Shown here piece after piece: positions 4,670 through 42,823 of a stretch of DNA of 64,000 nt. Where the stretch lies: IMG/VR virus record IMGVR_UViG_3300022910_000005, positions 16,685 to 80,684 of that record. One strand, given 5' to 3'. The notes under the pieces were generated by a model that was given only the letters and a program-made list of their open reading frames with translations, did not search any database and had not been told where the DNA came from. Within the stretch, counting starts at the first letter, position 1. The number at the start of each line of letters is the position of its first letter. A program made the translations under genes and the position numbers. Source of the DNA: a virus.

Positions 4670-4788
4670 TGGATCACTGGTACTGGGCCGGTGGATTTCA
4701 GGTCGCCGTCTGGGGAACGCTCATCCTCCAGGTCGCCACGGGCATCGTCCGTAGCATCGTCAGGGCGGCGAAGGAGGGCAAGAAGTGA
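4669..4788 (+). CDS. Small membrane protein (39 aa)
   Basis: MDHWYWAGGFQVAVWGTLILQV..., overlaps both neighbours; not in the ORF track. Confidence 0.5.
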   Translation: MDHWYWAGGFQVAVWGTLILQVATGIVRSIVRAAKEGKK

Positions 4789-13832: not shown

Positions 13833-14023
13833 ACCGGCGGCTCCTCGTACAGTTGGATCGCCTCTTCGGCAACCAGCACCCGGCCGAGGCCGACGTGCGC
13901 CTGCCGGACGTAGTAGACGACGCCGTCGACCCGCACCCGGTTCGGCTTCGCGCCGTCCGGGATGCGCACGCGCTTCGGCTCGCCGTCACGGGGGCCGCCG
14001 ACGAAGGTCATCGACTCGATCAT
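13829..14023 (-). CDS. Small GG-motif family protein 7
   Basis: MTFVGGPRDG. Confidence 0.6.
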   Translation of the reverse strand: MIESMTFVGGPRDGEPKRVRIPDGAKPNRVRVDGVVYYVRQAHVGLGRVLVAEEAIQLYEEPPV

Positions 14024-14841
14024 CGGATAGCCGGTTCCATCGTGATCTCGATGTTCGGCGGGAACGCCTTGTGCAGCGCGTCCAGCAGGGACGGCAGCGC
14101 CATCACGTCGGACCCGGCCAGGAGGGTCTTCGCCTCCCCGGCGTACGAGCGCAGTTCCGAGCGGACTGCCTTGCCGCGCAACGATTCACGCAGGACGTGG
14201 ATGCTGCGGATGCGTGCGAGGGGGATCTGCTTGGCGGCCATCTTCTTGTCCGGGTCGAGCCGCACCACGTCGCCGTCGCAGTCGATGACGTGCGCCACGT
14301 TGGTGGACAGCGGCCGGTTCGTGGTCCGCTGGTAGGAGATCCGCACGTAGTTGCCTTCGGCCAGCGCCCACGGCCCGGCCGGGAGCGTCATGGCCTGCAT
14401 CATGCTGTTCGCCTGGACGCTGATCGGGATCTCGATCGAGATGCTGTTGCCGATGAAGTGCTGTACCTGGTAGGCGCGGGCGCGAGGTTTCGTCTCCGCG
14501 AAGGACAGCACCAGGTACGCCAGGGACGTGTCGGCCGCCATCCGCAGGTCCGTGTCGGACAGGATCGGCTCGCTGGTTGGGTGGCTGTGAAACATCGCCA
14601 CCGGCTCCTCGGCGGCCAGGTCGAAGTCGGCGTACGCCAGCCGGACTTCCTCCGGGTGCATCTTGAACGTGGTGATCGGCTTCTCGGACACGTTGCGCAT
14701 CCAGTGCACGCGCACGCCGAGGCTGGAGCCCTTCTCGGCGACGATGAAGCCGCACGACTCCTGGGGTCGCTGGAGCCTGCACATCCGGATCATGTTCTGC
14801 ATGGTGCTGGCCGTCATGGTCAGCGAGCCGGGAACGCTCAC
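14020..14841 (-). CDS. JAB/MPN+ metallo-isopeptidase with C-terminal WYL-like domain
   Basis: ESCG...FHSHPTSEPILSDTD JAMM motif; C-terminal ALAEGNYVRISY...IPLARIRSI. Confidence 0.8.
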   Translation of the reverse strand: MSVPGSLTMTASTMQNMIRMCRLQRPQESCGFIVAEKGSSLGVRVHWMRNVSEKPITTFKMHPEEVRLAYADFDLAAEEPVAMFHSHPTSEPILSDTDLRMAADTSLAYLVLSFAETKPRARAYQVQHFIGNSISIEIPISVQANSMMQAMTLPAGPWALAEGNYVRISYQRTTNRPLSTNVAHVIDCDGDVVRLDPDKKMAAKQIPLARIRSIHVLRESLRGKAVRSELRSYAGEAKTLLAGSDVMALPSLLDALHKAFPPNIEITMEPAIR

Positions 14842-15399
14842 TCAGGTGCCTCCGCTGGAAAGGATGATCAGGACCCCGTACCAGACGGCGACCATCCCTC
14901 CGAGCATTTGCACGCCGGTCACGAACCGGTCTTCGCTTTTCGAGCCGGTCACCATCCAGCCGATGCGGATCTTATGCTTGACCAGCGGATATAACAAGCC
15001 CACGCCGTCCACGGTGAGCATGTCGATGAAGATGTGCAGCCCCCAGCCGATCGCGACCGCGTGAGCCAGCGTCCAGTTGCTCAGCAGCCAGCCGGTCAGG
15101 CCCCACGCGAACAGCACGGAGAGAGCGGAGTGGGTGAGCATCCGGTGCCCGCCCATCAGGCCCCTGATCCAGCGGGGCACGTACCGGCCGACCGTCGAGT
15201 TGTGGTGGTCGAGGTCCGGCAGGAACGACGCCAGCCCGGCCAGGATGAAACCCGCCAGCGCGTCCTTCATGCCCTGGCCGGGCAGGAGGATCGTCGTGCC
15301 AGCCAGGTGGGCCGACGACCAGACGGGAGCCGACACGGTCACCGGCAGGCTGGCGAACCAGCCGACCCATGCCGTGTTGACTCCCGCCCGCGCGTTCAC
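14842..15399 (-). CDS. YdjM-like membrane metal-dependent hydrolase
   Basis: LPDLDH, HRMLTHS, HIFIDMLT..GV.LLYP motifs. Confidence 0.8.
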   Translation of the reverse strand: MNARAGVNTAWVGWFASLPVTVSAPVWSSAHLAGTTILLPGQGMKDALAGFILAGLASFLPDLDHHNSTVGRYVPRWIRGLMGGHRMLTHSALSVLFAWGLTGWLLSNWTLAHAVAIGWGLHIFIDMLTVDGVGLLYPLVKHKIRIGWMVTGSKSEDRFVTGVQMLGGMVAVWYGVLIILSSGGT

Positions 15400-19139: not shown

Positions 19140-19170
19140 ACAGTACTCCAGTTGACAAGCGGTTGTCAAC
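19140..19170 (-). promoter_or_regulatory. Promoter with palindromic operator
   Basis: GTTGACAA-gcgg-TTGTCAAC (19151-19170); TTGACA-N18-TACTGT on the minus strand. Confidence 0.75.
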
Positions 19171-30948: not shown

Positions 30949-31323
30949 ATGGCAAGCAAGGACGTTCTGATGGTGCCCTGGTCGACGGGGCTGACCTACT
31001 CCGGCCAGAGGAACCTGCGCGTCGCCGCCGGGAGCCTCCTGGAGTACGCCCGGTACAACCCGGACTCCGGGTTCTCGGACGAGTCCGTCGCCTGGCGGCC
31101 GAACGAGGTCTTCTCCGGCTCGCTCCGGCTGGAGGACATGGAGCGCGGCCGGTCGGCCGCCCGGTTCATCTGGCGCTCGGACGACGGCCGGACGTATCCG
31201 ATGTTCATGTCCGGCCTGCTGGACCTGGTCAAGACGCACGGCATTCAGCCGGGCGGCCTCGTCCACACCCGCTGGACCGTCGCGAAGCGTGGCAGCAACT
31301 TCGGACTGGTGGTGGCGAAATGA
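30949..31323 (+). CDS. Hypothetical protein
   Basis: AAGGAG RBS. Confidence 0.65.
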   Translation: MASKDVLMVPWSTGLTYSGQRNLRVAAGSLLEYARYNPDSGFSDESVAWRPNEVFSGSLRLEDMERGRSAARFIWRSDDGRTYPMFMSGLLDLVKTHGIQPGGLVHTRWTVAKRGSNFGLVVAK

Positions 31324-31787
31324 GCAACTGGAGGGACGTCCATCGGGGCTTCATCGTGAAGGACAAGACCGGCCAGGAGTGGCTGGTGCTGGAGCGCAAG
31401 CCCGGCCAGGTCTTCACGATCAGCGCGCCAGGTCGCAGCGAGTACACCGGCCCGTTCCAGGGTGAGGTGGAGATCGTGAGACGGCCCGCGCCGCAGTCCG
31501 ATCCGCGTGTCCAGGACGTCATTGCGCGCGGTCTGATCGCCACCAAGTTCGGTGGCGTTGAGATCGGTAAGCAGGGGAAGGACAAGACGCAGCCGTGGAT
31601 GACTCCGGTCGACTTCACGGACCCGGGCGCGATGCTGGCCCACCTGCGGATCTTCCACAACGGCATGAGCGACGACCCGACCCTGGCCGGGCTCGTCAAG
31701 TATCACGCCACGCTGCATCACCCGAAGCAGAAGGCGGCGGATCTGTATGAGCCGCACGTCCACACTCCCGACTTCGACGAGTTGTGA
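31320..31787 (+). CDS. Hypothetical protein
   Basis: ATGA overlap. Confidence 0.6.
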   Translation: MSNWRDVHRGFIVKDKTGQEWLVLERKPGQVFTISAPGRSEYTGPFQGEVEIVRRPAPQSDPRVQDVIARGLIATKFGGVEIGKQGKDKTQPWMTPVDFTDPGAMLAHLRIFHNGMSDDPTLAGLVKYHATLHHPKQKAADLYEPHVHTPDFDEL

Positions 31788-32047
31788 GCAACGGAAAGCG
31801 TTGTGGGCGAACGGGTAAGGTCAGATTCCGGGATGACGATGAGGCGAAGGCTGCACTGAGCCGCATCAGGTCCGACCGGGGAGAGCGGCGGGCGAAGGTG
31901 CCGGTGCGCTGGTACGACGACTGCGAGTACTGCGGTGGCGTGCATCTGACCAGCCAGGAGTACCACAACGCGAACGGGACGATCTGGGAAGAGGAGGACG
32001 GCCTGCACGGGTTCCATCCGCTGCCGGACGCCGACCGGGACTACTAA
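31784..32047 (+). CDS. Zinc-binding hypothetical protein
   Basis: C..TGKVRF...CEYCGGVHLTS. Confidence 0.65.
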   Translation: MSNGKRCGRTGKVRFRDDDEAKAALSRIRSDRGERRAKVPVRWYDDCEYCGGVHLTSQEYHNANGTIWEEEDGLHGFHPLPDADRDY

Positions 32048-32059
32048 CTGAACGCAGCC

Positions 32060-32127
32060 GCCCGCCACCTCGTAGTAAGAGGTGGCGGGCTTCTGCGTTG
32101 ACAAGCGGTTGTCAAGTCTGTTACCTT
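32060..32127 (+). promoter_or_regulatory. Terminator followed by the operator-containing promoter of the conjugation operon
   Basis: GCCCGCCACCTC stem; TTGACAAgcggTTGTCAA; TTGACA-N18-TACCTT. Confidence 0.75.
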
Positions 32128-32159
32128 GATAGCAAGTTAGCAACCACGGGAGGAACCCC

Positions 32160-32453
32160 ATGAACCACCTGCACACGCTGGCCGTGCTCGCGGCTGCCCC
32201 CAACATCAGCGTCGACAAGATCAAGCAGTCGGCGCTGATGATTCTCACCGCCCTGATCTGCATCGGCCTCGCCTACATGACCCTCAAGGTCATCTGGAAG
32301 GACACCGACGACGGCGACTACAGCAGCGTCGCGAAGAAGGTGCTCACCTCGATCATCGGGATGATCCCCTTCGTCATGGCCGGATCGCTGGCCATCGCCG
32401 CCGGGTGGGCGACCGCGCTGCTGAGCCTGCTGACCGGGCTGGTCTCGAAGTGA
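32160..32453 (+). CDS. VirB2/pilin-like small membrane protein
   Basis: 97 aa, two TM segments, first gene of the T4SS-like operon. Confidence 0.6.
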   Translation: MNHLHTLAVLAAAPNISVDKIKQSALMILTALICIGLAYMTLKVIWKDTDDGDYSSVAKKVLTSIIGMIPFVMAGSLAIAAGWATALLSLLTGLVSK

Positions 32454-33262
32454 GCCCCGTGCAGCGGAACGACGACGACGGACGCCAGATCCGGCAGCCG
32501 TGGCTGGGCGCGAAAGGCGCACGCTGGCCGATGGACTGGACCTACGACGAGTGGGCGCTCGGCCTGTTCGGGTTCATCGTCGGCGGGACGCTGATCACCT
32601 GGGTGGTCCCGGCTGCCGTCATGGCGTTCATCGTGATCCGTTCCGCTGCACGGTTCATCTCGATCCGCAACAACCCGCACGCGCCCCGCAAGACGTACCT
32701 GCTCGTCGTGGCGATGATGACGACGCTCTGCCTGATCCTGTCCGTCAACCCGATGTTCTGGCTCAAGCCGATCTTCCTGCCGTTCGCGCTGGTCGCGTCG
32801 CTGTTCATGCCCTCGCGCACCGTGAAGGCGTACGGCAAGTACGTCGGCTGGAACCGGCCGCTGTCCTACTGGATCGCCATGCCGTTCCGGATCGCCCGGG
32901 GGCCGCGCCTGGTGCCCACCGACACGATCAACCCGGCGATGCTCGGCATGGGCCTCGACCTGGAGAGCCTCGACCGCGATGACACGGCCGACCTGGTGCC
33001 CGGCCGGATCGTCACGATCCCCCGGCTGAAGGCCCCGGCCAGGAAACCTGCGCCGCAGGCGCTTGCCCCCAAGCCCGTCAAGGCGACCATCACCAGCGCA
33101 CCGAAGAAGACCGCCCGCGTCGCCCGCACCCCGCTGACCGAGCGCCGCCTCGTCGCACCGGGCGCTCCGGTCCGCCACCGCACCCGCAAGCAGAACCTGA
33201 TCTACCGCACGCCGACCGGCCTGATGGTCTTCGGCACCGAGTACCGGATGGAGAGCCGCTGA
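32450..33262 (+). CDS. Conjugal transfer membrane protein (VirB3/TcpE position)
   Basis: Multi-TM, directly upstream of the VirB4-like ATPase. Confidence 0.55.
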   Translation: MSPVQRNDDDGRQIRQPWLGAKGARWPMDWTYDEWALGLFGFIVGGTLITWVVPAAVMAFIVIRSAARFISIRNNPHAPRKTYLLVVAMMTTLCLILSVNPMFWLKPIFLPFALVASLFMPSRTVKAYGKYVGWNRPLSYWIAMPFRIARGPRLVPTDTINPAMLGMGLDLESLDRDDTADLVPGRIVTIPRLKAPARKPAPQALAPKPVKATITSAPKKTARVARTPLTERRLVAPGAPVRHRTRKQNLIYRTPTGLMVFGTEYRMESR

Positions 33263-35949
33263 TGGGCCTGTTCGCCGCCCCCAAGAAGACGACCTGGACG
33301 ACACCGGTCCGCAAGACGATCGCTCTCGCGCCGACGGCCAAGCAGGTGGTGCGCAACCTGATCCTGCTGAAGGACGGCAGCGTGCTGGCCGGTTACCGGA
33401 TCGGCGACGCACGCTGGGACTTCACCGGCAAGGACGCGAAGATCATGCGGATGGACCAGGACGCGGACGTGTTCGCCGCGCTGGTCGGCCGGTCCTACCA
33501 CGAGCGGGTCACCACCCGCCCGCACCCGGTCGCGACCTGGGCCGGGAACCTCGACAAGCGGACGCCACGCCCGACGCCCGACATCCACACCTGCGACCTG
33601 AGCGCGGGCCTTTCCCAGGGCGACCTGCTGAACGGCCGGTGCGGCTGCGAGACGTGGGGCCGTCACCTGATCCGCCAGCAGGACGTCATCGCCCGTTCCG
33701 GCATGAACGACAAGATCGTCTTCCGCTACTTCGGCCTGACCGTGAAGGTGTCGCCGCGCACCGACCTTCGCAAGCAGATCAACGAGTTCGTGAAGACCGG
33801 CAAGGCGTCCGGCGTCGTGGCTCGGCTGATCGCCGACGAGAAGCGCGTCAGCGACATCGTGACCGGCTGGCCGGGCTCCAAGCGGATGAGCGAGTACGAG
33901 CAGGGCTGGCTGCGGGTCCGCTCGCTGTCGCCCGGCGTCATCCCCACCGGCATCCACAGCAAGGACCGGGGCGGCTGGGACGAACTGGCCCTGCCTGCCC
34001 TCGCGTCCGACACCCGGTGGGCCGAGACGCCTTTCGGCCGGACCGTGACCGTCACCTCGTTCGCCGACGGCAAGCAGGTCGAGTCGGCCGTGCGCGTGCT
34101 GACGATGGCGCGGATGGCCGACCTGAACTACCCGGAGAACGGGATGCCGCCGTGGCAGGTGCACGGCGAGTCCGTCCTGGACGCTTCCGGCCGCCCGTTC
34201 CCGGTGGAGTGGTCGGTCGTCGGCCGTCTGCGCTCCGGCGAGGAACTGGCCAAGGAGGTGGAATTCGAACTGCGGCGCGTCCAGCACGTCAAGGGCGACT
34301 ACGAGGATCACAGCGAACTGCCGCCGTCGAACGTCGGCAAGGCCATCGCCGTCGCCGTCGACACCCGCGACCAGGTCACCACCGGCCAGGCTGCTGTCGC
34401 CGCCAGGTTCCAGGGACAGATCAACGTGATCATCTCCGGCCAGGCGACCGAGAACCTCACCGCCGAGCAGGTGGTCGAGGAGCGGTGCGCCGCGTTCACC
34501 CGGATGTACGCCAACGCTGGCCTGCGGATGGACTTCACCGGCTCCGACAGCCAGTCGTTCATGCTGGCCAGCACGGTGCCCGGTGAGCCGTACGACCGGC
34601 TCGGCTTCCAGCGTCGCCTGCGGCTGCCGTTCCTGACGGCCGGGATGCCGAACGTCTCCTCGTCCGTCGGTGACGGCGTCGGCCCGTACCTGGGCCACAC
34701 CCGGGGAGCGACCCGGCGCGCGGTGCAGCACGACCCGCACTTCGCCACGGAAGGTCTGCGGACCGGCCGGGGCCAGAACATGCACGTCGTGCTCGGCACG
34801 CTCGGTGCCGGGAAGTCCGTCGTGACCGGCTCCATCGGCTACAACGCCGTCCGCCGGGGCATCCGCACGGTCATCTCCGACCCGTCCGGCCCGCTCGCGG
34901 CGCTGACGAAAATGCCGGAGATCGCGGACGTTTCGCAGGAGATCAACCTGCTGAACGGCGCGCGGGGCATCCTGTCCCCGGCCGCACTGATCCGCGACCC
35001 GCTGCTGACCGAGTACGACGAGCCCGGCCAGTTCGCGGAGGCCCTGGGCCAGGCGGCGGCCGAGCGGCGGGACCTGATGGTCGACATGGCCAAGCGCTGC
35101 CTGCCGGACTACCTGATGAAGGACCAGGCCGAAGCCCGCACGGAGGCGGCCCTGCGCCTGGCCGCTCGCCAGCACGCCGAGACGCGGGACGGCTGGAAGC
35201 AGACCGACACCATGTGGGACCTGATGCGTCCGCTGAAGGACAGCACCGACGACTGGGCGAAGGCCGTCCACGGTGCGCTGACGGACGCCTCCACCGCTCC
35301 GCTGCTGCGCCTCATGTTCCCGGAGCCGGGCGCTCCCGGCAGCATCGGGCACTACGACAAGACGCTCACGGTGATCACTACCCCTGGCATCGTGCGGGCC
35401 GTGGACGGCACGCCGCGCAAGGACTGGAACCCGCTGGAGGTCGGGGCCGACGTGGTGCTGCGCCTGGTCGGACTGTTCACCGACCGGCTGATCTACTCGA
35501 AGACCCGCAGCGAACGCTGCATCGCGATCTTCGACGAGGCCGAGTCGCTGACGGACTTCGGGCCGGGCCGGTCCATGCTGTCCCGGCTGGGCCGCGACCA
35601 CTCCAAGTGGAACATCGCCGTCTACCTGGCCGTGAAAAGCATCAACCCGCAGATGCTTTCGGGGGAGTTGAAGAACTTCCTCGCCAGCGTGTTCGTCGGC
35701 CGGATGGCATCGCGCGAACCGGCCGAGGCCGCGCTGGAACTGCTGGGGCTGACCGACAAGCGGTACGCGCAGGTGCTCATGGGCCTGTCCACGTACGTGC
35801 CCGGCGAGTTCGTCCACGCCGACGTGGCCGGGAACGTGGGGATGCTGAAGGTCGACGTGGACTACCACCCGGCCCTGAAGGACGCACTGCTGACCGACCC
35901 GACTCCGGAAGGCTCCGGCCACTGGACCCTTGAAGAGGAGATCGCCTGA
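33262..35949 (+). CDS. VirB4/ConE-like conjugation ATPase
   Basis: 895 aa, Walker A GTLGAGKS, DPSG, Walker B IAIFDEAE, RDHSKWN. Confidence 0.85.
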   Translation: MGLFAAPKKTTWTTPVRKTIALAPTAKQVVRNLILLKDGSVLAGYRIGDARWDFTGKDAKIMRMDQDADVFAALVGRSYHERVTTRPHPVATWAGNLDKRTPRPTPDIHTCDLSAGLSQGDLLNGRCGCETWGRHLIRQQDVIARSGMNDKIVFRYFGLTVKVSPRTDLRKQINEFVKTGKASGVVARLIADEKRVSDIVTGWPGSKRMSEYEQGWLRVRSLSPGVIPTGIHSKDRGGWDELALPALASDTRWAETPFGRTVTVTSFADGKQVESAVRVLTMARMADLNYPENGMPPWQVHGESVLDASGRPFPVEWSVVGRLRSGEELAKEVEFELRRVQHVKGDYEDHSELPPSNVGKAIAVAVDTRDQVTTGQAAVAARFQGQINVIISGQATENLTAEQVVEERCAAFTRMYANAGLRMDFTGSDSQSFMLASTVPGEPYDRLGFQRRLRLPFLTAGMPNVSSSVGDGVGPYLGHTRGATRRAVQHDPHFATEGLRTGRGQNMHVVLGTLGAGKSVVTGSIGYNAVRRGIRTVISDPSGPLAALTKMPEIADVSQEINLLNGARGILSPAALIRDPLLTEYDEPGQFAEALGQAAAERRDLMVDMAKRCLPDYLMKDQAEARTEAALRLAARQHAETRDGWKQTDTMWDLMRPLKDSTDDWAKAVHGALTDASTAPLLRLMFPEPGAPGSIGHYDKTLTVITTPGIVRAVDGTPRKDWNPLEVGADVVLRLVGLFTDRLIYSKTRSERCIAIFDEAESLTDFGPGRSMLSRLGRDHSKWNIAVYLAVKSINPQMLSGELKNFLASVFVGRMASREPAEAALELLGLTDKRYAQVLMGLSTYVPGEFVHADVAGNVGMLKVDVDYHPALKDALLTDPTPEGSGHWTLEEEIA

Positions 35950-37745
35950 TGTTGAAGGGTTTTCACCGCTACGTGCGGCTGGCCCAGTTATCGGTGGTGC
36001 TGATGCTGGTGGCGTTCGCACTGATCATCCACGCCGCCTCGGCCCACGCTTCCGCCCCGGCCGGGATCGACGTGCCGGGCGTGGAGGTATGCCCGAAGGA
36101 GGCACCGTTCGCGCAGACGCCGGAGTCCGGGCTGGCCGGGCTTCTCGGTGAGCGTCCGCTGAAGATCACCACCGACAACTCCCCCGATCACATCTGGACG
36201 ACGGGCGGCTTCGCTGGCCTCCAGTCGAACACCTACGACCTCGGCTGTGGCATGAACCCCGGCAACTGGGTGAAAATCACCAGCGCGCACACCGGTTCGT
36301 CGATGAGCAACTTCTTCCTGTCGGCCGGGGACTCGATGGTGTCGCTGACGGACTCGATCGACCGGCGGGCGTGGCAGCCGCAGTGGCTGCTGTCGTTCCT
36401 GGACGACTTCATGTTCCGGGTGACGGGGATGACGAACACGCTCATCCTGCTGCCGTTCCTGGGCCTGGCGCTGGCGCTGGTCGGAGTGATCCTCGTCTGG
36501 AAGTCCAACGATGGTGACTATGCCGCTGCCGCAACGAGTGTCGGCTGGATCTTCATCGTCCTTGCCATCACGTCGCTGCTGGTGACGACGCCGCTGATCG
36601 TCGCGAAGTTCGGCACGAGCGTCGGCTCCACGTCGGTCGCGGTGCTGAACGGCGGCGCGAACGCCTCCGACGCCGTCACCAACCAGGTGGTCAAGAACGT
36701 CGAGTACCAGGGCTGGCTGCGTCGCAACTTCGGCCCGTCGGACACGGAGGTCGGCAAGAAGTACGGGCCGGAACTGCTGGCGGCCAGCCGGGTTTCGTGG
36801 GCGGAACTGGACAAGGTCAACGCCCTGCCCGCCGACAAGCAGTCGCAGGCGCGTTCCGATCTGACGGACGCGAAGGCGAAGAAGTTCAAGGACATCGCCG
36901 CGAAGGTGAAGGACGAAGACCCGACGGCCTACAAGTACCTGACCGGTGAGATCATCGGCACCCAGGAGAGCATCGTCGAGGTGATCTTCCTGTTCATGGC
37001 GTGCGCGCTGCGGATGATGGTGGCGATCCTGATGATCGCCTGCGTGATCAGCCTGGCCCTGATCAGCATCCTGTGGGTGCTGCTGACGCCGGTCCTCATC
37101 CAGCCGCCGTTCAAGATGCTGGACGGGCGCACACTCGGCACCGGCCTGCTGAACGGTTCGATGCGCGCCCTGCTGTACGTCGGCGAAGCGGCGCTCGGCG
37201 CATGGCTTTACGGCTTCTTCCTCCAGGCGTGCATGGCCCCGGGCCTGAACCTCTGGTGGTCGCTGCTGCTGCTGACGATCGGCACGCTGATCGCCTGGTT
37301 CATGATCGGCCCGTTCGGCAAGTTGATGGCGATCCTGTCGCTGGGCCGGGCCGACACCGGAGCCTCCTACGTCGGCAAGGCCGTGAAGGGCGCGCTGATG
37401 GCCTGGGGCGGCGGCCTGATCGCCGGGCTGGCGGCGGCGAAGTCGGTCAACGATCACGAGGACGAGGAGCGGGCGGCGGCCCCAGAGCGGCTGTCTGAGA
37501 CGATCCAGCAGCCGCAGGTCGTGCACGCCACCGTCTACAACCCGTGGGAGCACCAGATGGACGACACGGTGCGCACCGAGCACTTCCCCGACGCAGACCG
37601 GACGCTGCCGACCGGCGGCACCCCGGAACTGCCGATGTACCGGCGCGGTGCCGAACCGGCCCCGCCGCCGGACGAGACCGCCAGCCCGTACGCCACGTAC
37701 GAGCGGGAAAGTTCTTCTGATGACAACGAGGGAGCGCACCTGTGA
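35949..37745 (+). CDS. VirB6-like polytopic channel protein
   Basis: Signal-like N-terminus, many TM helices, acidic tail; follows VirB4. Confidence 0.7.
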   Translation: MLKGFHRYVRLAQLSVVLMLVAFALIIHAASAHASAPAGIDVPGVEVCPKEAPFAQTPESGLAGLLGERPLKITTDNSPDHIWTTGGFAGLQSNTYDLGCGMNPGNWVKITSAHTGSSMSNFFLSAGDSMVSLTDSIDRRAWQPQWLLSFLDDFMFRVTGMTNTLILLPFLGLALALVGVILVWKSNDGDYAAAATSVGWIFIVLAITSLLVTTPLIVAKFGTSVGSTSVAVLNGGANASDAVTNQVVKNVEYQGWLRRNFGPSDTEVGKKYGPELLAASRVSWAELDKVNALPADKQSQARSDLTDAKAKKFKDIAAKVKDEDPTAYKYLTGEIIGTQESIVEVIFLFMACALRMMVAILMIACVISLALISILWVLLTPVLIQPPFKMLDGRTLGTGLLNGSMRALLYVGEAALGAWLYGFFLQACMAPGLNLWWSLLLLTIGTLIAWFMIGPFGKLMAILSLGRADTGASYVGKAVKGALMAWGGGLIAGLAAAKSVNDHEDEERAAAPERLSETIQQPQVVHATVYNPWEHQMDDTVRTEHFPDADRTLPTGGTPELPMYRRGAEPAPPPDETASPYATYERESSSDDNEGAHL

Positions 37746-38239
37746 TCACCTGGATGTTCCAGAGCCCCGACCGGCTGAAGCGGGTGGCGATCACCTTCGC
37801 GCTGACCTGCGTGACGCTGACGATCCTGCTGACGATCGTCCGGGTCCACGACCTGGCTTCCCACCGGCCGACCGCCGAGCCGACCTACGGGGCCACCACG
37901 GAATCGACCGCTACCGGCCTGCTGCCGCCGTCTCCCAGCCCCGAACCGGCTCCGGCGACCACGGAGTACGGACCGGCCACGCCGATCGCCCTGGAGGCCG
38001 CTCAGGCGTTCCTCCAGGGGGACCGGAGCCGGTTCGCTGAACTGGCCCAGCCGGACGTCGTCGAGTCCGCCAACGAAGCGCCCACGCCCGGCGGGCAGAT
38101 CACCGCGCCCGGCCGCGTCCTGCTCGGCGGGCCGACCCAGCAGAAGATCCTGGTGCCGACCAGCGAAGGCGACCTGACCCTCACCATGATCGTCATCGAC
38201 GGGGCCTGGAAGGTCGCCGGGATGGAGTACGCGAAGTGA
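37742..38239 (+). CDS. Bitopic VirB8-like protein
   Basis: One TM, P/T linker, NTF2-like end (GAWKV). Confidence 0.55.
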   Translation: MITWMFQSPDRLKRVAITFALTCVTLTILLTIVRVHDLASHRPTAEPTYGATTESTATGLLPPSPSPEPAPATTEYGPATPIALEAAQAFLQGDRSRFAELAQPDVVESANEAPTPGGQITAPGRVLLGGPTQQKILVPTSEGDLTLTMIVIDGAWKVAGMEYAK

Positions 38240-38367
38240 GCCGGTCGCAGCGGAGGATAGAACTGGACCTGAAGTACGGAATTGTCACCATGATGATCGT
38301 CGAGGCGGCCTGCTTCGCCGTTCCGTTCTGGCTGCTGGTTGCGCTCGTCCGGTGGTGGGCGGCGTGA
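38236..38367 (+). CDS. Small membrane protein (43 aa)
   Basis: GTGA overlaps; not in the ORF track. Confidence 0.45.
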   Translation: MSRSQRRIELDLKYGIVTMMIVEAACFAVPFWLLVALVRWWAA

Positions 38368-38564
38368 GCAACTGGGTGCCGCCGCACATTCCGATCCGGG
38401 ACCATCCCGGGCCGCCCCGCTGCTGGATGTGCAACCGGCGGCTGCGCTGGTGGCAGATGACCACCTGCCGGACCTGCTCGCCGCACTTCCACGACTTCAT
38501 GTGGCTGCACAACCACATGGGCCGCAACACGTTCGCCCCACCCGACCGATGGAGGAACCGATGA
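38364..38564 (+). CDS. Small zinc-finger protein
   Basis: CWMC...CRTC. Confidence 0.5.
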   Translation: MSNWVPPHIPIRDHPGPPRCWMCNRRLRWWQMTTCRTCSPHFHDFMWLHNHMGRNTFAPPDRWRNR

Positions 38565-39544
38565 AGATCTGGATCGCTGCGGGCGCAGCCAGCCTGGCCG
38601 GGCTCGTCGCGGTTCCGCTCGCCATCACCAGTCTGATGTTCGGCCCACCGCCGCTGCCCGCGCTCAGCATCGCCACCCAAGAGGTCTCCTCCTGCACGGT
38701 GCAGATCCCGGCCAGCGCGCGCACGGCCGGAGCACTGTCGGCCGAGCAGGTCGCGAAATATGCGTACGCGGCCGGTTTCCGTGGGCAGGACATCAACATC
38801 GCCGTGGCCGTGGCCCGCGCCGAGTCCGGCTGGCGGCCGACCGCAACCCTGCTGAACACCAACGGCAGCACCGACCACGGCCTGTTCCAGATCAACTCGA
38901 TCCACGCGGCGATCCTCGCGGAAGGGAACTGGGCTGACCCGGCCGACAACGCGAAGATGGCGTTCAAGGTCTGGACGCAGGCGGGCGGCAAATGGTCCCC
39001 GTGGGTGACGTACTGGCGCGGCACCTACAAGCAGTACCTGACGGACGTCGACCCGAAACCCACCTGCACCACACCGAAGTCGACCGGCCCGTGCAAGAAG
39101 GTGAGCGGTGAGTTCTCCAACGGGCTCATCCCGGCCAGCGCGCTCTGCACCCTGTGGACCAACCGCCACCACCGCCTGCGGGCCGACGCCGCCAACTCGT
39201 TCGACGCGATGAGCCGGGCGTACATGGCGAAATTCGGTGTGCGGCTGTGCCTTACGGACTCCTACCGGCCGCTGTCCGTGCAGATCGACCTGAAGCGGCG
39301 GAAGGGTTTCCTAGCCGCGAAGCCCGGCACGTCCAACCACGGCTGGGGTCTGGCTGTCGATCTGTGCGCTCGCGGCAGCCAGGAGAACCCGCAGCCGTGG
39401 AACCGTGGCACCGAGGACGACGTGTGGCTGCACCAGAACGCACCGAAGTTCGGCTGGGTCCACCCCGGCTGGGCTGAGCCGTCCGGCTCGAAACCCGAAC
39501 CCTGGCACTGGGGTTACAACCTCGACAAGGAGCACGCACCGTGA
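38561..39544 (+). CDS. Conjugative cell-wall hydrolase: lytic transglycosylase plus M15/VanY-like peptidase
   Basis: N-terminal TM; AESG, DHGLFQIN; DSYR, PGTSNHGWGLAVD, EPWHW. Confidence 0.88.
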   Translation: MKIWIAAGAASLAGLVAVPLAITSLMFGPPPLPALSIATQEVSSCTVQIPASARTAGALSAEQVAKYAYAAGFRGQDINIAVAVARAESGWRPTATLLNTNGSTDHGLFQINSIHAAILAEGNWADPADNAKMAFKVWTQAGGKWSPWVTYWRGTYKQYLTDVDPKPTCTTPKSTGPCKKVSGEFSNGLIPASALCTLWTNRHHRLRADAANSFDAMSRAYMAKFGVRLCLTDSYRPLSVQIDLKRRKGFLAAKPGTSNHGWGLAVDLCARGSQENPQPWNRGTEDDVWLHQNAPKFGWVHPGWAEPSGSKPEPWHWGYNLDKEHAP

Positions 39545-39789
39545 GCGATCCGCTTGACCTTCTGGGTGTTGCCGCCATGCGAAAACTACGGGCCCAGCAG
39601 GAACTTGCCGCAGCGAACGCCTCCCTGGCAGCCGCCCTGCGACTCATGGCAGCCCGGCCTGGCGAACCGAAGTGCAGGGTCGGGCAGCACGCACGGGCCT
39701 ACCTCGGCCTGCATGGATTCGGACCAGAAGAGATGACGGCGCTCGGTATTTCGGACAGCAGTGTCAGGAACATGCTCGACGCGGGGTAG
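39541..39789 (+). CDS. Hypothetical protein
   Basis: AAGGAG RBS, overlap. Confidence 0.5.
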   Translation: MSDPLDLLGVAAMRKLRAQQELAAANASLAAALRLMAARPGEPKCRVGQHARAYLGLHGFGPEEMTALGISDSSVRNMLDAG

Positions 39790-39798
39790 GCAGCGAAA

Positions 39799-39830
39799 AG
39801 CCCGGCCAGGCAACCGCCCGGCCGGGCTTC
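39799..39830. terminator. Terminator between convergent conjugation and lysis operons
   Basis: Identical to 917-948. Confidence 0.75.
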
Positions 39831-39859
39831 GTCGTGTTCGCGACCTGCCAGACGAAGGA

Positions 39860-40102
39860 TCAGACGTCAGACAGCGTGCTGGCCGAGTCCGGGTTGCCGA
39901 CCTGCTTGGCCACGAACACCTTGACGGAGTTCAGACCGGCCAGGATGATCGGGGCCGACCAGATCGGCAGATCGAGGGAGTCGATCGACAGCAGGACGGA
40001 CGTCACGACACCGTAGGACGTGGTCCAGAAGATCCGCTCCAGGGCGTCCTTCATGAACTTCGGCTGACGGTACCGGGGGACGGCCGGGGTTTCGTTGGTC
40101 AC
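39860..40102 (-). CDS. Holin
   Basis: KDALERIFWT..., two TM segments, GNPDSAS tail; follows the endolysin. Confidence 0.75.
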   Translation of the reverse strand: MTNETPAVPRYRQPKFMKDALERIFWTTSYGVVTSVLLSIDSLDLPIWSAPIILAGLNSVKVFVAKQVGNPDSASTLSDV

Positions 40103-40119
40103 TGGTTTTCTCCTGAGGG

Positions 40120-41151
40120 TCAGACCGAGCGGGATTCGCCGGTCGGGTTGGACGGGATCAGCGTACTCGCCAGGTCGTTGACCTTGCCTTCGATCGTGGC
40201 CAGGGAGAGCGCCGTCGCCTCGCGGGCGGCCTTCTCCTCGTCCAGCGCGGCGGTCAGCGTCACCAGCAGGTTGTAGACCCGCTCGGCGGCCGGGCCGCCC
40301 CACTTCGCGAGCCGGTCGTAGGTCAGTTCGTCGCCCAACTTCCACGGCGTGGCGCTGGGGCCGTTGTTGCTGTTCATCTGGTCGACCATGTACTGGCTGG
40401 TCAACTTGACGGACAGGTCGTCCTTGGTGAGTGCGGCCACGCTGGGCTCCTTCGGTGGGTCCGGCTTCTCGACCGGAGGCTTGGGCTTCGGGGGGTTGAG
40501 CGCGCTCACGACGCGCGGGATGACGATCGCCTTCAACTGGGCGATCCGGGCGGGACCGGGGCAGCCCTTGCCGACCGCGCCAGACCACTGCACGCCGCCC
40601 TTCACCAGCCAGCCGGAGCCGGACGGCTTGAAGCCGGTCGAATGCTTGCAGCCCTGCCGGTGGTAGGCGATCCCCCGGCGGCCGGGCTTCGTGTCCGGCA
40701 CCAGCCTGGCCGGGATTCCGACCTTGTGGCACTCGAAGTGGCTCGGGCAGTCCTTGTGGGCTTCCTTCGAGCAGAGCCAGGTCACCAGCCGGACGATCGC
40801 GTCGATCTGCTCGGGCGTCCATCCGGCGATGTCCTCGACGAGACGCGGTGCGTTGTCAGCGGTTTCGATGGAGATGACCCCCATGTTTCCGTTGAGGTTC
40901 GCGTCGGCCTTGTACGCCGTGTCGCCCCATTGGTAGACGACGCCGTTGAGGTCGGCGGCCTTGTCGCCGCCCCACTTGCCGCCGACACCGAAATGCGATT
41001 CGGTGCCGGACCAGCCGTTCTGGTGGAACATCGCGTCGGTCGACGTGAGGAAGCCGACCATTGTGTGCAGGCAGATGAAATCGTGCGACGTCATCGCCGC
41101 CTGGTGACCGGCGGCGAGCGGTCGCCACCGGGCTCGGGAGTACCTAGCCAT
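40120..41151 (-). CDS. Endolysin, N-acetylmuramoyl-L-alanine amidase
   Basis: LHT, SHF, ISIE, YH, KGCPG. Confidence 0.88.
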   Translation of the reverse strand: MARYSRARWRPLAAGHQAAMTSHDFICLHTMVGFLTSTDAMFHQNGWSGTESHFGVGGKWGGDKAADLNGVVYQWGDTAYKADANLNGNMGVISIETADNAPRLVEDIAGWTPEQIDAIVRLVTWLCSKEAHKDCPSHFECHKVGIPARLVPDTKPGRRGIAYHRQGCKHSTGFKPSGSGWLVKGGVQWSGAVGKGCPGPARIAQLKAIVIPRVVSALNPPKPKPPVEKPDPPKEPSVAALTKDDLSVKLTSQYMVDQMNSNNGPSATPWKLGDELTYDRLAKWGGPAAERVYNLLVTLTAALDEEKAAREATALSLATIEGKVNDLASTLIPSNPTGESRSV

Positions 41152-41578
41152 CCTGTCGGTCCTTCATCTCGTCAGTCCGGGCACCGAGCCTGGTCACCTG
41201 GGCCAGCAGCGCGTCGTATCGCAGGTTCGCTTCGGCGCGTTCGGTGCGGATCTGGTTCTCCAATCGTGCCACATCGGCACGAAGTCGCTCCTGATCGAAC
41301 AGCCAGCGGGCGCGCTCGGTCGCGTGCCGGGCTTCGTCGGCGATGCGCTGCGAACGCTCCTCGGCGAGCATCTCTCTCAACCGAGCCACGTCCTCGCCCA
41401 GTTCGTCGCGCGCTCGCGCGACGGTGGCGATGTTGGCGTCGACAACTCCGGCATAGCGCATTTCCTTTGGGGGTTCGGCCCGCCAGGCTCGGAAGGCGTC
41501 GTAGGCATACTTGACGCCCCCTCCTGAGAGTACCGCGAGAAACACGGTCACCCACGGGTCCGGTGTGGGGGTGGCCAT
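41144..41578 (-). CDS. Membrane-anchored coiled-coil lysis-region protein
   Basis: One TM plus coiled coil, upstream of the lysin. Confidence 0.65.
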   Translation of the reverse strand: MATPTPDPWVTVFLAVLSGGGVKYAYDAFRAWRAEPPKEMRYAGVVDANIATVARARDELGEDVARLREMLAEERSQRIADEARHATERARWLFDQERLRADVARLENQIRTERAEANLRYDALLAQVTRLGARTDEMKDRQDG

Positions 41579-42036
41579 CAGCAGTCCTTGCGTCGGGTAC
41601 GGACAATCTCCTTGATCAACGCGGCCTCCTGCTCTTTCAGCCACCACCCCCGCAGTAGGCATACGCAGCCGACCGTGAAGAAGAACGCCGCCGTGGCCCC
41701 GGCTCGGCCCCAGGTCGACGCTCCGATCACCGCGACCGAGAAGGCCACGAGGGTCGTTGCGAACAGGTACAGACCACTGGCGATCAGCCCGAGACGCCGG
41801 GATGCGATCCCGAACGCCACGGAAGAGCCAGCCATGATCATCATTACGGCCCAGACAAGTTCCAACTTGTCCGGCAATGCTTGCAGGCTCACCGACGGAG
41901 AGTTGCCGGTGATGATGTTCATGACGATCGCTGCCGCCCAGATCACCAGGCCCATCTCCAGGCCGTATTCACCGATCGCGTGCGGAAGCCGCCTCCTGAG
42001 GACGAACCGTCGCGCCCTTGCTCGCCACGGAGACAT
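41578..42036 (-). CDS. Four-TM membrane protein (lysis region)
   Basis: Hydrophobic segments. Confidence 0.65.
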   Translation of the reverse strand: MSPWRARARRFVLRRRLPHAIGEYGLEMGLVIWAAAIVMNIITGNSPSVSLQALPDKLELVWAVMMIMAGSSVAFGIASRRLGLIASGLYLFATTLVAFSVAVIGASTWGRAGATAAFFFTVGCVCLLRGWWLKEQEAALIKEIVRTRRKDC

Positions 42037-42106
42037 CAAGATCCTTCCACCACAACGATTCGAGCCTGGACCCTGATCGTATGTCAACCCGCCGGTAACG
42101 TGCGGA

Positions 42107-42823
42107 TCAGAACACCTGCGTGGGCGTCACGTACATCCGGCTGGCCGTCGAAACGGTCGTGGTGTTCGCGTTCGAAGCACCCTGAGCCCACTGCCACTGC
42201 AACGTCCCGGCCGCCGTCACGGTCACCAGCATGTCCTCATGCAACACCGACGCGGCCAGGCCAGCATCCAGACCGATCCGCACGGCGGTCGCGAACCCGT
42301 GGCCGGACGCCCGGCTGACTGATCCGGCCGACTGACCCTCGGCCGCCGTCGTGTTCTCGCCCGGACCCATCACCGAGCGGCCGTTCGAGGATATCGTCCC
42401 GCCCGTGAAGGCCCAGGCCGTCCGCAGGTCCGGGACGTCGGACGGCGATGAGCAGTGAGCGAACAGTTCGATCCGGTACGTGCCGATCGACAGCGGCCAC
42501 GCCAAGTCCGTGTCGTTCACCAGCGTGGTCGACGAAGTGACGCCCTGGCTGGCCAGTTTCCGCTTGCAGATGGTGCCGGACGGGATGCCGGACAGGCGAC
42601 CGCCGACGATCCACGTCGACTTCTGCTTGACCATCCACACCCGGTCGCCGACCAGCAGTTGCGAATCCTGGTCTCGCGCAAGCCATGCCAGGTCCGTCTG
42701 GTCGGTGCGCACCTTCCGGGCCGCGCCCGTGTCGATCGCGGTGATGACGCCGATTCGCAGGTCGGCCGTCGGCTCCTTGTCGGCCAGGAGCCCGGCCAGG
42801 TCTTGCGTCTGGTCAATGCTCAC
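42107..42823 (-). CDS. Minor tail protein
   Basis: OB-like N-terminus (VGDRVW) plus beta-sandwich; tail position. Confidence 0.7.
   Translation of the reverse strand: MSIDQTQDLAGLLADKEPTADLRIGVITAIDTGAARKVRTDQTDLAWLARDQDSQLLVGDRVWMVKQKSTWIVGGRLSGIPSGTICKRKLASQGVTSSTTLVNDTDLAWPLSIGTYRIELFAHCSSPSDVPDLRTAWAFTGGTISSNGRSVMGPGENTTAAEGQSAGSVSRASGHGFATAVRIGLDAGLAASVLHEDMLVTVTAAGTLQWQWAQGASNANTTTVSTASRMYVTPTQVF

Follow-up and report, generated by a model that had tools for sequence, protein, structure and literature searches.

Gene content of the operon

A single operon of eight high-GC3 ORFs, all on the plus strand, occupies positions 32160-39789 of the window, which here means the whole analysed stretch of 64,000 nucleotides. 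It belongs to an uncultured tailed virus from leaf litter, a complete siphophage with a genome of 80,684 bp (80.7 kb), whose hosts are presumably high-GC soil bacteria. Genes for TerL, portal, capsid, tape measure, tail and amidase lie on the minus strand at 40120-63285. An earlier note, made by reading the nucleotide sequence, had recognized a conjugation-type operon in a tailed phage here, and both parts of that description hold. The amidase endolysin of the phage (40120-41151) is separate from the hydrolase encoded in the operon (g7), and the replication genes are of the PrimPol/D5 type. No tRNA genes were found within the window. A holin was also called, solely on size and position. The 4-bp overlaps that had been described between small ORFs are present at four junctions (g1/g2, g4/g5, g6/g7 and g7/g8), whereas g2/g3 and g3/g4 overlap by 1 bp.

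The genes were compared with cassettes on plasmids of Streptomyces sp. NEAU-S7GS2, Streptomyces 891-h, Nonomuraea NBC_00507, Gordonia terrae (pPAE01) and Prescottella equi (pVAPN). Among 639 ORFs, HMMs derived from the phage genes single out precisely the ORFs at equivalent positions. The first gene, g1 (32160-32453), encodes a small membrane protein of 97 aa whose N-terminus resembles a leader and which has two hydrophobic helices (2 TM). It has no Pfam or PHROG family and occupies the first small-ORF slot of the cassette, where its HMM matches the equivalents on the Gordonia and Prescottella plasmids (9.5e-5 and 0.004). The second, g2 (32450-33262), lies directly 5' of the ATPase gene, in the VirB3 position, and encodes a 270-aa membrane protein with 2 TM in a hydropathy scan. 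Its N-terminal core of ~170 aa is conserved and its C-terminus is variable. No named family in Pfam or NCBIfam matches g2, and its HMM matches the ORF directly upstream of the ATPase in all five plasmid cassettes (1e-6 to 2e-4).

The central gene, g3 (33262-35949), encodes an 895-aa ATPase of the VirB4 family. Pfam AAA_10 matches it at 7.6e-19 with 352 of 362 profile positions covered, NCBIfam TcpF gives a partial match at 1.2e-13, and the Walker A (GTLGAGKS, residue 512) and Walker B (IAIFDE, residue 754) motifs are both intact. The top Foldseek matches of its AF2 model (pLDDT 83.7) are R388 TrwK/VirB4, over the full length (E 6.5e-21, TM 0.55/0.60), and this fold match is far better than those to HerA, DndH and TrwB. 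The dN/dS of g3 is 0.02. Thus, the ATPase groups with VirB4, as had been claimed.

Downstream of the ATPase, g4 (35949-37745) encodes a 598-aa polytopic membrane protein with ~6 TM in the VirB6 position. Its HMM matches the post-ATPase membrane protein in all five plasmid cassettes (3e-61 to 7e-33), and none of its homologs has a Pfam family. The best natural match of its model (pLDDT 62.5) is TrwI/VirB6 (Z 10.7, rmsd 5.4, 245/261 residues), which ties with designed helical repeats, and Foldseek gives nothing at E <= 0.001, so that the modelled likeness to VirB6 is only suggestive. The 165-aa product of g5 (37742-38239), in the VirB8 position, consists of an N-terminal anchor joined by a Pro/Ser-rich linker to a small C-terminal domain. 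Pfam, PDB-sequence profile and Atlas searches gave no significant match for g5, and its HMM matches the positional counterpart in 4/5 plasmid cassettes (1e-8 to 4e-4).

The last three genes include the wall hydrolase. Its start had been placed at 38339 and was corrected to 38561, and the gap before it holds a conserved 70-aa ORF, g6 (38352-38564; GC3 0.92), which joins g7 by an ATGA overlap and has homologs in the close relatives L005, L020 and L022. The 327-aa product of g7 (38561-39544) is a membrane-anchored bifunctional cell-wall hydrolase, a lytic transglycosylase plus a VanY-type peptidase, with a TM anchor and Pfam matches to SLT_3 (4.3e-19), VanY (4.6e-14) and SLT (2e-6). It is the dedicated cell-wall hydrolase of the operon, a VirB1-like role. 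The operon ends with g8 (39541-39789), an 82-aa soluble protein with no family match in Pfam or PHROG; short ORFs resembling it by eye come after the hydrolase in L005, L006 and L009. Among the names that the earlier note gave to these genes, VirB4 and transglycosylase-peptidase stand and VirB6 has the tied structural match described above, whereas VirB8 and pilin find no significant match. The VirB8, VirB3 and pilin identities of the small membrane proteins are unproven.

Control signals and a candidate DNA pump

Hairpins at both ends appear to insulate the module. On the 5' side, an inverted repeat at 32051-32099 (plus strand; RNA fold -40.1 kcal/mol, z-score -8.2) would close the upstream small-gene operon (31784-32047). 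It is followed by a putative operator-promoter at 32098-32127 (plus strand). The left half of the palindrome TTGACAAGCGGTTGTCAA (32098-32115) forms the -35 element TTGACA, and a -10 element, TACCTT, is predicted at 32122-32127. With up to two mismatches, TTGACAA-N4-TTGTCAA has 8 matches in the window, where 0.04 would be expected by chance, and the copies at 19152 and 32098 fit it without mismatch and are identical to each other. The operator is thus shared with other sites of the phage, as proposed. It occurs 18 times genome-wide, with 0 sites in the structural half. A similar motif lies 60-70 bp 5' of g1 in L003, L005 and L006, and the operator-promoter is kept with the module in both orientations. 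On the 3' side, a putative terminator hairpin at 39799-39830 (-31.5 kcal/mol, z-score -4.9) separates the converging module and lysis genes. Its 32-nt string is identical to that at 917-948, confirming another observation of the first reading, and both copies are strong hairpins (z-scores -4.9 and -6.7). A scan with E. coli-type promoter and terminator consensus calls neither the operon promoter nor the terminators, which are proposed here from the motif and the hairpins.

A gene outside the operon, 27 kb away, encodes a 555-aa protein in which an HNH nuclease is fused to an FtsK/SpoIIIE ATPase (HNH-FtsK; 4785-6452, plus strand), with Pfam matches to FtsK_SpoIIIE (7e-13) and HNH (5e-9) and a Walker A motif at residue 294. 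Its best matches are plasmid FtsK genes adjoining the VirB4 cassette (1e-24 to 1e-27), against 1e-8 for the best phage FtsK among the matches listed, and these alignments argue firmly for homology to plasmid transfer genes. HNH-FtsK is present in 4/5 related phage records and accompanies the module in related complete phages. No family match to VirD4 was found, and HNH-FtsK is a candidate coupling protein, or DNA pump, of the FtsK type.

Residency in the phage lineage

Related phages with the same synteny, which the first reading had proposed to look for, do exist, and the known relatives of the virus all carry the channel genes. The module is found at the same locus, in either orientation, in at least ten related metagenomic phage loci (L003-L010, L015 and L017). 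It always adjoins the lysis genes and is co-directional with them in most relatives; in the present genome and in L015 it runs opposite to them. All ORFs are intact and dN/dS is 0.02-0.14, which demonstrates purifying selection, and codon usage cannot be told apart from that of the other phage genes (RSCU correlation 0.98-0.99). The whole 80,684-bp genome encodes no tyrosine or serine recombinase, and no direct repeats above chance flank the operon. The shared locus, the dN/dS values, the codon usage and the lack of a recombinase or att scar argue that the phage lineage has long harboured the module and that it is not a passenger ICE. Thus, the term "domesticated module", and the statement that no integrase or att scar accompanies it, are supported.

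Of 35 metagenomic ATPase homologs, those at IMG/VR and JGI loci were examined for gene context, and the ATPases of the related phage modules all lie to one side of a branch. The module and the ATPase had no match in cultured phage genomes at either the DNA or the protein level, in searches from which entries identical or nearly identical to the record may have been masked. A pattern derived from the ATPase alignment, run against the genomes of 185,579 species, turned up no relative of the phage clade. At 1e-5, the phage ATPase profile matched nothing on Streptomyces chromosomes, so that the phage clade is not close to the conserved cmd-type ATPase of those chromosomes. The genome has zero family matches over cut-off to ParA or ParB, plasmid-maintenance or lysogeny genes were looked for in it and none was found, and the lineage looks lytic. 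Since there is no integrase, ParA or ParB and no relative of the ATPase clade in the scanned genomes, a stable donor state is unlikely, and classical conjugation out of lysogens is not expected. TerL gave zero matches above 30% identity among plasmid records; in the genome scan, its relatives with 50-61% identity belong to prophages of mycelial actinomycetes. The genomes bearing these prophages were considered as a host or lysogenic relative and rejected. Their VirB4-like genes lie elsewhere and are only ~28% identical to the phage ATPase, and the two flanks inspected (Micromonospora and Prauserella) have no phage genes nearby.

Kinship with known transfer systems

The order common to the phage and the plasmids is two small membrane proteins, an ATPase of ~900 aa, a polytopic protein of 600-850 aa, an anchored protein of ~170-280 aa and a murein hydrolase. 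This six-gene order is collinear and homologous gene by gene, and on the plasmids it stands beside FtsK/SpoIIIE. The gene order, for which the earlier note invoked Gram-positive mating-pair modules, matches that of actinobacterial plasmid cassettes, and the comparisons make homology of the whole cassette to plasmid transfer genes firm at the sequence level. The plasmid cassettes are probably akin to the transfer operon of SLP2, in which six co-transcribed genes are needed for conjugal transfer (PMC2782261). Several differences set the phage apart. Identity between phage and plasmid cassettes is only 25-29%, and the phage cassette is carried by a virion-encoding genome with no ParA, no replication-initiator-type plasmid genes and no detected relaxase. 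The plasmid FtsK adjoins the cassette on a ParA replicon, whereas that of the phage is remote and has an N-terminal HNH domain. The hydrolase combines SLT and VanY in the phage but is NlpC/P60 or M23 in the plasmids.

The same core set is found in T4SSs of monoderms (pCW3 Tcp, ICEBs1 Con, Tn916, pIP501/pCF10), namely a VirB4/TcpF-type ATPase, a polytopic protein in the VirB6 position, an anchored bifunctional wall hydrolase and an FtsK/TcpA-type coupling ATPase (PMC12857230). Unlike those systems, the phage has no detected relaxase, its VirB8- and VirB3-like parts are unrecognizable by sequence, and its carrier is a tailed phage. A self-transmissible element of the ssDNA type needs a relaxase and an oriT, and searches with the TrwC, Relaxase and Rep_trans families gave no match anywhere in the genome.

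A partial precedent is pZL12, a Streptomyces plasmid-phage for which both conjugal transfer and a lytic cycle are described (Zhong et al., 2010, as presented in PMC3583192 and PMC4487206). In these accounts, pZL12 is likewise an actinomycete element with virion genes and with transfer genes around an FtsK-like tra gene; it is a ParAB-bearing plasmid prophage, and its transfer requires tra and two neighbours. Unlike pZL12 as so described, the present phage has no partition or integration genes and has a full VirB4-type cassette. It also falls outside the phage-plasmids of the P1, N15 and pZL12 type, since virion genes are present, no ParA or ParB family match over cut-off was found and replication is phage-type. 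In phage-ICE tandems, another partial precedent, a single transferable DNA segment likewise carries both phage and conjugation genes (Huang et al., Sci Adv 2026, PMC13651849). These are two elements, each with its own integrase, joined by site-specific accretion, and their authors do not regard them as hybrids (PMC13651849). In contrast, the module here lacks an integrase and att sites and is an operon fixed inside a genome of capsid size. Among phages, Bacillus phage G gp155/gp156, Bacillus phage JL and Siphoviridae sp. ctHip2 give structural matches to the ATPase model (E 3.6e-17 to 2e-11), and among the proteins of ctHip2 are also ones annotated as conjugal transfer protein and FtsK translocase; no similarity at the sequence level was detected with tblastn. 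Bacillus phage Slash was considered as an analogue and rejected, as its ATPase matches are all weak and split and no cassette is evident.

Possible functions of the cassette

Judged from its sequence, the operon is with good reason regarded as a functional, long-resident and plasmid-derived T4SS (mating-pair-formation) cassette of the monoderm, actinobacterial kind in a lytic-looking siphophage lineage. The operon would be transcribed from its own promoter, within the regulon that controls the non-structural genes of the phage. The products of g1-g5 would assemble a VirB4-powered channel in the membrane of the infected cell, and that of g7 would locally open the cell wall. The channel and the HNH-FtsK pump (4785-6452) could then carry phage dsDNA across to a neighbouring cell or hyphal compartment with no virion involved, and infection might spread by contact where receptors are missing or particles diffuse poorly. 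We infer each of these steps: the timing of expression, the assembly of the channel, phage DNA as its substrate and the transfer itself. A maintained cassette with a pump that moves phage DNA between cells is the best explanation, though a tentative one that may well prove wrong. It is plausible that a phage passes its DNA from cell to cell besides making particles. More specifically, apparently virulent phages of soil actinomycetes may push replicating dsDNA into neighbours through the T4SS channel and HNH-FtsK, giving infection independent of virions and receptors; this is possible but rather doubtful. The precedent of pZL12, as far as the cited accounts describe it, supports contact-dependent spread, which is weakened by the lack of a relaxase match and by the distance of the pump from the operon.

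The operon might instead be a recent passenger, a decaying relic or an assembly chimera. The GC content of the operon is slightly above that of its flanks, Logan unitigs of the source sample (X1) break exactly at the 32-nt repeat of the right boundary, and the stretch is partly uncovered by contigs in sample X4. However, both junctions are bridged in an independent rhizosphere sample and L015 has the same arrangement, so that the assembly is sound. With nine other related loci carrying the module at the same site, and with intact, selected and phage-like genes, this explanation is hardly credible. A lysis or cell-wall-remodelling accessory would account for the position beside the lysis cassette, mostly in the same direction, and for the bifunctional murein hydrolase. 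Lysis, however, needs neither a VirB4 ATPase nor a polytopic channel protein, and the phage already has amidase and holin-like genes. The operator-promoter is moreover of an early type and the operon is inverted against the lysis genes here and in L015, all of which leaves this role very improbable.

Two further explanations accept the T4SS machinery and dispute what it serves. One is a functional but repurposed machine, which would secrete proteins or effectors into neighbours, release or take up DNA, or reprogram septation or differentiation of the host. A non-transfer role is possible because cmdABCDEF, the chromosomal paralog in Streptomyces, acts in sporulation and could not replace the plasmid transfer genes (PMC2782261), and non-conjugative roles of T4SSs are also given for monoderms (PMC12857230). 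The lack of a relaxase match and the unlinked pump fit such a role as well. On the other hand, the nearest kin of the cassette and of the FtsK-like gene are plasmid-borne and adjacent there, Streptomyces chromosomes lack a match to the ATPase profile at 1e-5, and no candidate effector was identified. We regard repurposing as unlikely, if a serious contender. The other explanation is that the cassette conjugates non-phage DNA, such as co-resident plasmids, host DNA or satellites, and that the phage gains from this at most indirectly. FtsK/TraB-type systems recognize short clt repeats and can mobilize chromosomal markers (PMC3583192), and no cis site was identified on the phage. Yet strict purifying selection at a fixed locus, in a lineage whose genome is limited by the capsid, points to an advantage for the phage itself and makes this explanation improbable.

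Implications

Virion transfer and conjugation have been treated as alternative strategies of mobile elements (PMC12282955), and the word "phage" is absent from a 2025 review of T4SSs (PMC12857230). A conserved phage lineage with a complete-looking mating channel and a plasmid-type pump makes it a testable question whether viruses can spread from cell to cell without particles. If true, this would change views of phage host range and receptor-based resistance, of phage spread through mycelia and in habitats of poor connectivity, for example litter and soil, and of the classification of mobile elements. If the cassette has another role, it would represent a new viral use of T4SS parts. The finding also highlights a little-studied T4SS-like cassette, linked to FtsK and devoid of a relaxase, which is widespread on the plasmids and chromosomes of actinobacteria.

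Operon layout and control signals

The domesticated T4SS-type cassette in this tailed phage is well supported. Between 32160 and 39789 lie eight closely packed ORFs of high GC3 (g1-g8, plus strand), which overlap by 1 or 4 bp. The sequence features that the earlier note listed for this DNA are all present, with two corrections. The predicted transglycosylase-peptidase gene (g7) exists, but its start had to be corrected to 38561, and it is preceded by a conserved 70-aa gene (g6). The product of g7, the last large protein of the operon, is a membrane-anchored hydrolase with SLT_3 and VanY domains (Pfam).

As had been proposed, the palindrome TTGACAAGCGGTTGTCAA at 32098 is the same operator as the copy at 19152. 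The window has 8 occurrences of the motif, where 0.04 would be expected, and the whole genome has 18, with none in the structural half. Most of the 18 TTGACAA-N4-TTGTCAA sites are intergenic and stand ahead of operons. On their sequence and placement, they look like a phage-wide regulon. A weak MarR-like protein is encoded at 1565-2116. The claimed terminator identity also holds: the 32-nt string at 917-948 recurs without a difference at 39799-39830 and folds as a strong hairpin, and a second strong hairpin lies directly 5' of the operator. The operon promoter and the terminators were not called by an E. coli-type consensus scan, and both are putative.

The cassette as a resident of the phage lineage

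The window is the final 64 kb of one linear 80,684-bp virus record of the IMG/VR type (CheckV completeness 100%), with a GC content of about 66% throughout. A siphovirus late module on the minus strand (40120 to about 63900) encodes the large terminase (TerL), an SPP1-type portal, an HK97-type capsid, tape measure, tail proteins and an amidase endolysin; the remainder of the window holds replication genes (PrimPol/D5 helicase, exonucleases, endonuclease VII) and early genes. The best-matching sequencing run is a leaf-litter metagenome, which may be the source sample, and close variants were found in rhizosphere, litter and soil samples of other studies.

Independent Logan contigs of the best-matching, probably source, sample span the left boundary of the module with zero differences (31000-36156) and stop at the right boundary precisely at the 32-nt repeat, because a k=31 graph must break there. 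In an independent rhizosphere sample, contigs cross the left junction (31835-32654) and also the right one (39314-39852 joined to 40108-40434), and the related phage locus L015 has the same convergent module-lysis arrangement. An assembly chimera is thus excluded for practical purposes. A 33-nt unitig at 40651-40683 reaches a depth of 45.7 in the source sample, where the phage stands at about 10; it is a short sequence common to other abundant DNA there.

Searching the IMG/VR and JGI metagenomes gave eight IMG/VR loci and six metagenome loci after removal of duplicates, with ATPases 42-100% identical. The module is on phage DNA in ten loci (L003-L010, L015 and L017), and in 9 of the 10 it lies between homologs of the phage's tail and lysis genes and early or PrimPol genes. 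The flank of L008 is without those tail-gene matches, and the same contig carries a 67% TerL homolog. Completeness is 96% or more in three related records, of which one has terminal repeats; these near-complete relatives share 71-79% identity in TerL, 42-53% in the ATPase and 38-47% in the FtsK-like gene. In a quick tree, in which rows were called phage by extension from rows of known context, the 15 sampled ATPases of the clade lie to the same side of a branch whose SH-aLRT support is 88. Comparison with strain L020 (97-99% identical) gives a dN/dS of 0.02 over the C-terminus of the ATPase and of 0.12-0.14 over g4-g6, and the codon usage of the module correlates with that of structural and early genes at r = 0.98-0.99. 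No recombinase was found in the whole genome, and no att-like repeat was found flanking the module. The module is therefore a resident, not a passenger, and its description as domesticated is well supported by the shared locus, the low dN/dS, the phage-like codons and the lack of recombinase and att repeat.

The module alone is inverted in this genome, L015 and the close strain of run X2 relative to L003-L007, L009, L010 and L017, with the neighbours on both sides unchanged, and an operator-like motif is found 60-70 bp 5' of g1 in either orientation. Thus, to judge from these motifs, the cassette behaves as a self-contained transcription unit that is wired to the non-structural regulon of the phage, rather than being read through from the late or lysis operon. 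The palindromic hairpins at both module ends might have mediated the inversion.

Some other features of the genome are recorded here. Besides the amidase, the lysis region (39860-42107) encodes an 80-aa protein with two TM segments (39860-40102, minus strand) and two ORFs that the GC3 filter overlooked, one of about 150 aa with four TM segments and another (about 145 aa) that combines a TM segment with a coiled coil; in the X2 strain, 39853-40107 is swapped for 360 unrelated letters. Amid the early genes and distant from the tail module, a gene at 10533-12821 (plus strand), overlapped by long antisense ORFs of equally high GC3, encodes a 762-aa glycine-rich protein, seven repeats of which match a PHROG 'minor tail protein' family. 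At 14020-15399, in a replication-side operon, a Prok-JAB (JAMM) domain protein adjoins a YdjM-family inner-membrane protein.

Identity of the ATPase and its partners

The 895-aa ATPase (g3) is a VirB4. It matches Pfam AAA_10, a marker in use for actinobacterial VirB4-like components (PMC3218068), along nearly the entire profile. With its AlphaFold2 model (alignment of 20 homologs, pLDDT 83.7), the top ten matches of a structure search are all R388 TrwK/VirB4, over about 890 aligned columns (E 6.5e-21). Matches to HerA, DndH and the coupling protein TrwB have E-values no better than 1e-9 and are confined to the C-terminal domain, and the NCBIfam TcpF model matches partially. Walker A and B are intact and invariant across the family. 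Grouping with VirB4, set beforehand as a test, is borne out by the profile, the full-length fold and these motifs. A BFVD structure search of viral proteins also returned VirB4-like folds in gp155/gp156 of Bacillus phage G, in Bacillus phage JL and in Siphoviridae sp. ctHip2, a gut metagenomic siphovirus that also has proteins named conjugal transfer protein and FtsK translocase. Further phage lineages may have comparable modules.

Outside their own clade, the nearest ATPase relatives are "ATP-binding proteins" (25-29% identity) on 88 actinobacterial plasmids of Rhodococcus, Prescottella, Streptomyces, Nonomuraea, Gordonia and others. All five plasmids examined (of Streptomyces sp. NEAU-S7GS2 and 891-h, Nonomuraea NBC_00507, Gordonia terrae pPAE01 and Prescottella equi pVAPN) share with the phage one six-gene order: two small ORFs, the ATPase, a large membrane protein, an ORF of about 170-280 aa and a murein hydrolase. 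Profile HMMs of g1, g2, g4 and g5, trained on the phage versions alone, were searched against the full set of 639 ORFs of these plasmid loci. The top match was the positional equivalent on 5/5 plasmids for g4 (3e-61 to 7e-33) and g2 (1e-6 to 2e-4), on 4/5 for g5 (1e-8 to 4e-4) and on 2/5 for g1 (9.5e-5 and 0.004). The proposed match to the gene order of transfer modules is thus supported for actinobacterial plasmid cassettes, the order being collinear and the equivalents homologous. By description, the cassette is alike in general kind to the six-gene co-transcribed operon that conjugal transfer of Streptomyces plasmid SLP2 reportedly needs (PMC2782261).

The VirB6-like label of g4 keeps its position, its topology and a suggestive fold match: in a helical model of modest confidence, TrwI/VirB6 is the best natural structural match (Z 10.7, 94% of its chain), but designed helical repeats score equally. 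The VirB8-like label of g5 and the pilin-like label of g1 found no significant match and are still guesses. The wider family also has VirB4-like members, about 28% identical, on large chromosomal contigs of Micromonospora, Prauserella, Lentzea, Kibdelosporangium and Amycolatopsis; the Micromonospora and Prauserella flanks hold no homologs of the phage's genes, and these loci are probably ICE-like cassettes.

A candidate HNH-FtsK pump

The phage gene at 4785-6452 specifies a fusion protein, as judged from Pfam domains and Walker A: an HNH nuclease followed by an FtsK/SpoIIIE ATPase. An FtsK/SpoIIIE gene adjoins the cassette on the five plasmids examined, and those genes are the best matches of the phage pump (E 1e-24 to 1e-27), whereas phage FtsK-like proteins reach about 1e-8 at best among the matches listed. 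Coupling proteins of several monoderm T4SSs are FtsK/TcpA-type ATPases (PMC12857230), and the dsDNA motor of Streptomyces plasmids is TraB (PMC3583192). The phage therefore has the two halves of a plasmid transfer region, a plasmid-type VirB4 cassette and an FtsK of the cassette-linked type, at unlinked sites. The pump gene, including its N-terminal part, is found in 4/5 related phage records. Related phages keep the HNH fusion; the plasmid homologs lack it, their matches beginning at residue 74 or later. Cleavage or nicking of DNA for transfer is a possible role of the HNH domain.

Lifestyle and possible role

In the whole genome no integrase, ParA, ParB or VirD4-type coupling protein was found, nor a relaxase of the TrwC, Relaxase or Rep_trans families. 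A pattern scan of 185,579 species' genomes gave no relative of the phage ATPase clade, and a TerL search of plasmid records gave no match above 30% identity. With neither integrase, ParA, ParB or relaxase nor a clade relative in those genomes, the lineage looks virulent, or without recognisable lysogeny apparatus. This alters the picture given in the earlier note: a stable donor state of the plasmid or ICE type is unlikely. Relatives of TerL and of the cassette hint at mycelial actinomycetes as hosts.

Of the readings considered, spread by cell contact is the most economical, though it is rated as somewhat less likely than not. A serious rival is that the cassette has been repurposed for a role other than transfer; cmdABCDEF, a paralogous chromosomal cluster of Streptomyces, works in sporulation instead of transfer (PMC2782261). 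Lack of a relaxase does not decide the matter, because most plasmids with a homologous cassette also have none by MOB typing, and FtsK/TraB systems move dsDNA. Less likely are assistance in lysis, as the phage already has an amidase and holin-like genes and the operon has its own operator-promoter and is inverted here relative to the lysis genes; mobilisation of other DNA, given the purifying selection on a cassette kept at a fixed locus; and relic status, given the intact ORFs, the low dN/dS and the phage-like codons. Under spread by contact, any phage DNA that the machine moves would most likely leave an infected cell in the latent period, and infection would pass on by contact, unlike transfer from a stable plasmid or ICE donor. 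In mycelial hosts, the obvious use would be transfer across hyphal cross-walls.

No description of a VirB4-type T4SS cassette within a tailed-phage genome was found in the literature. A 2025 T4SS review never mentions phage (PMC12857230), a plasmid-mobility review treats virion transfer and conjugation as alternatives (PMC12282955), and the text of a phage-plasmid survey, in which phages were screened with CONJscan, reports no conjugative phage. There are partial precedents. The Streptomyces plasmid-phage pZL12, which reportedly combines a lytic cycle with tra-dependent conjugal transfer (PMC3583192, PMC4487206), is one; phage-ICE tandems, not hybrids according to their authors (PMC13651849), are another. 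The present element belongs with known kinds, the plasmid transfer cassette and the plasmid-phage.
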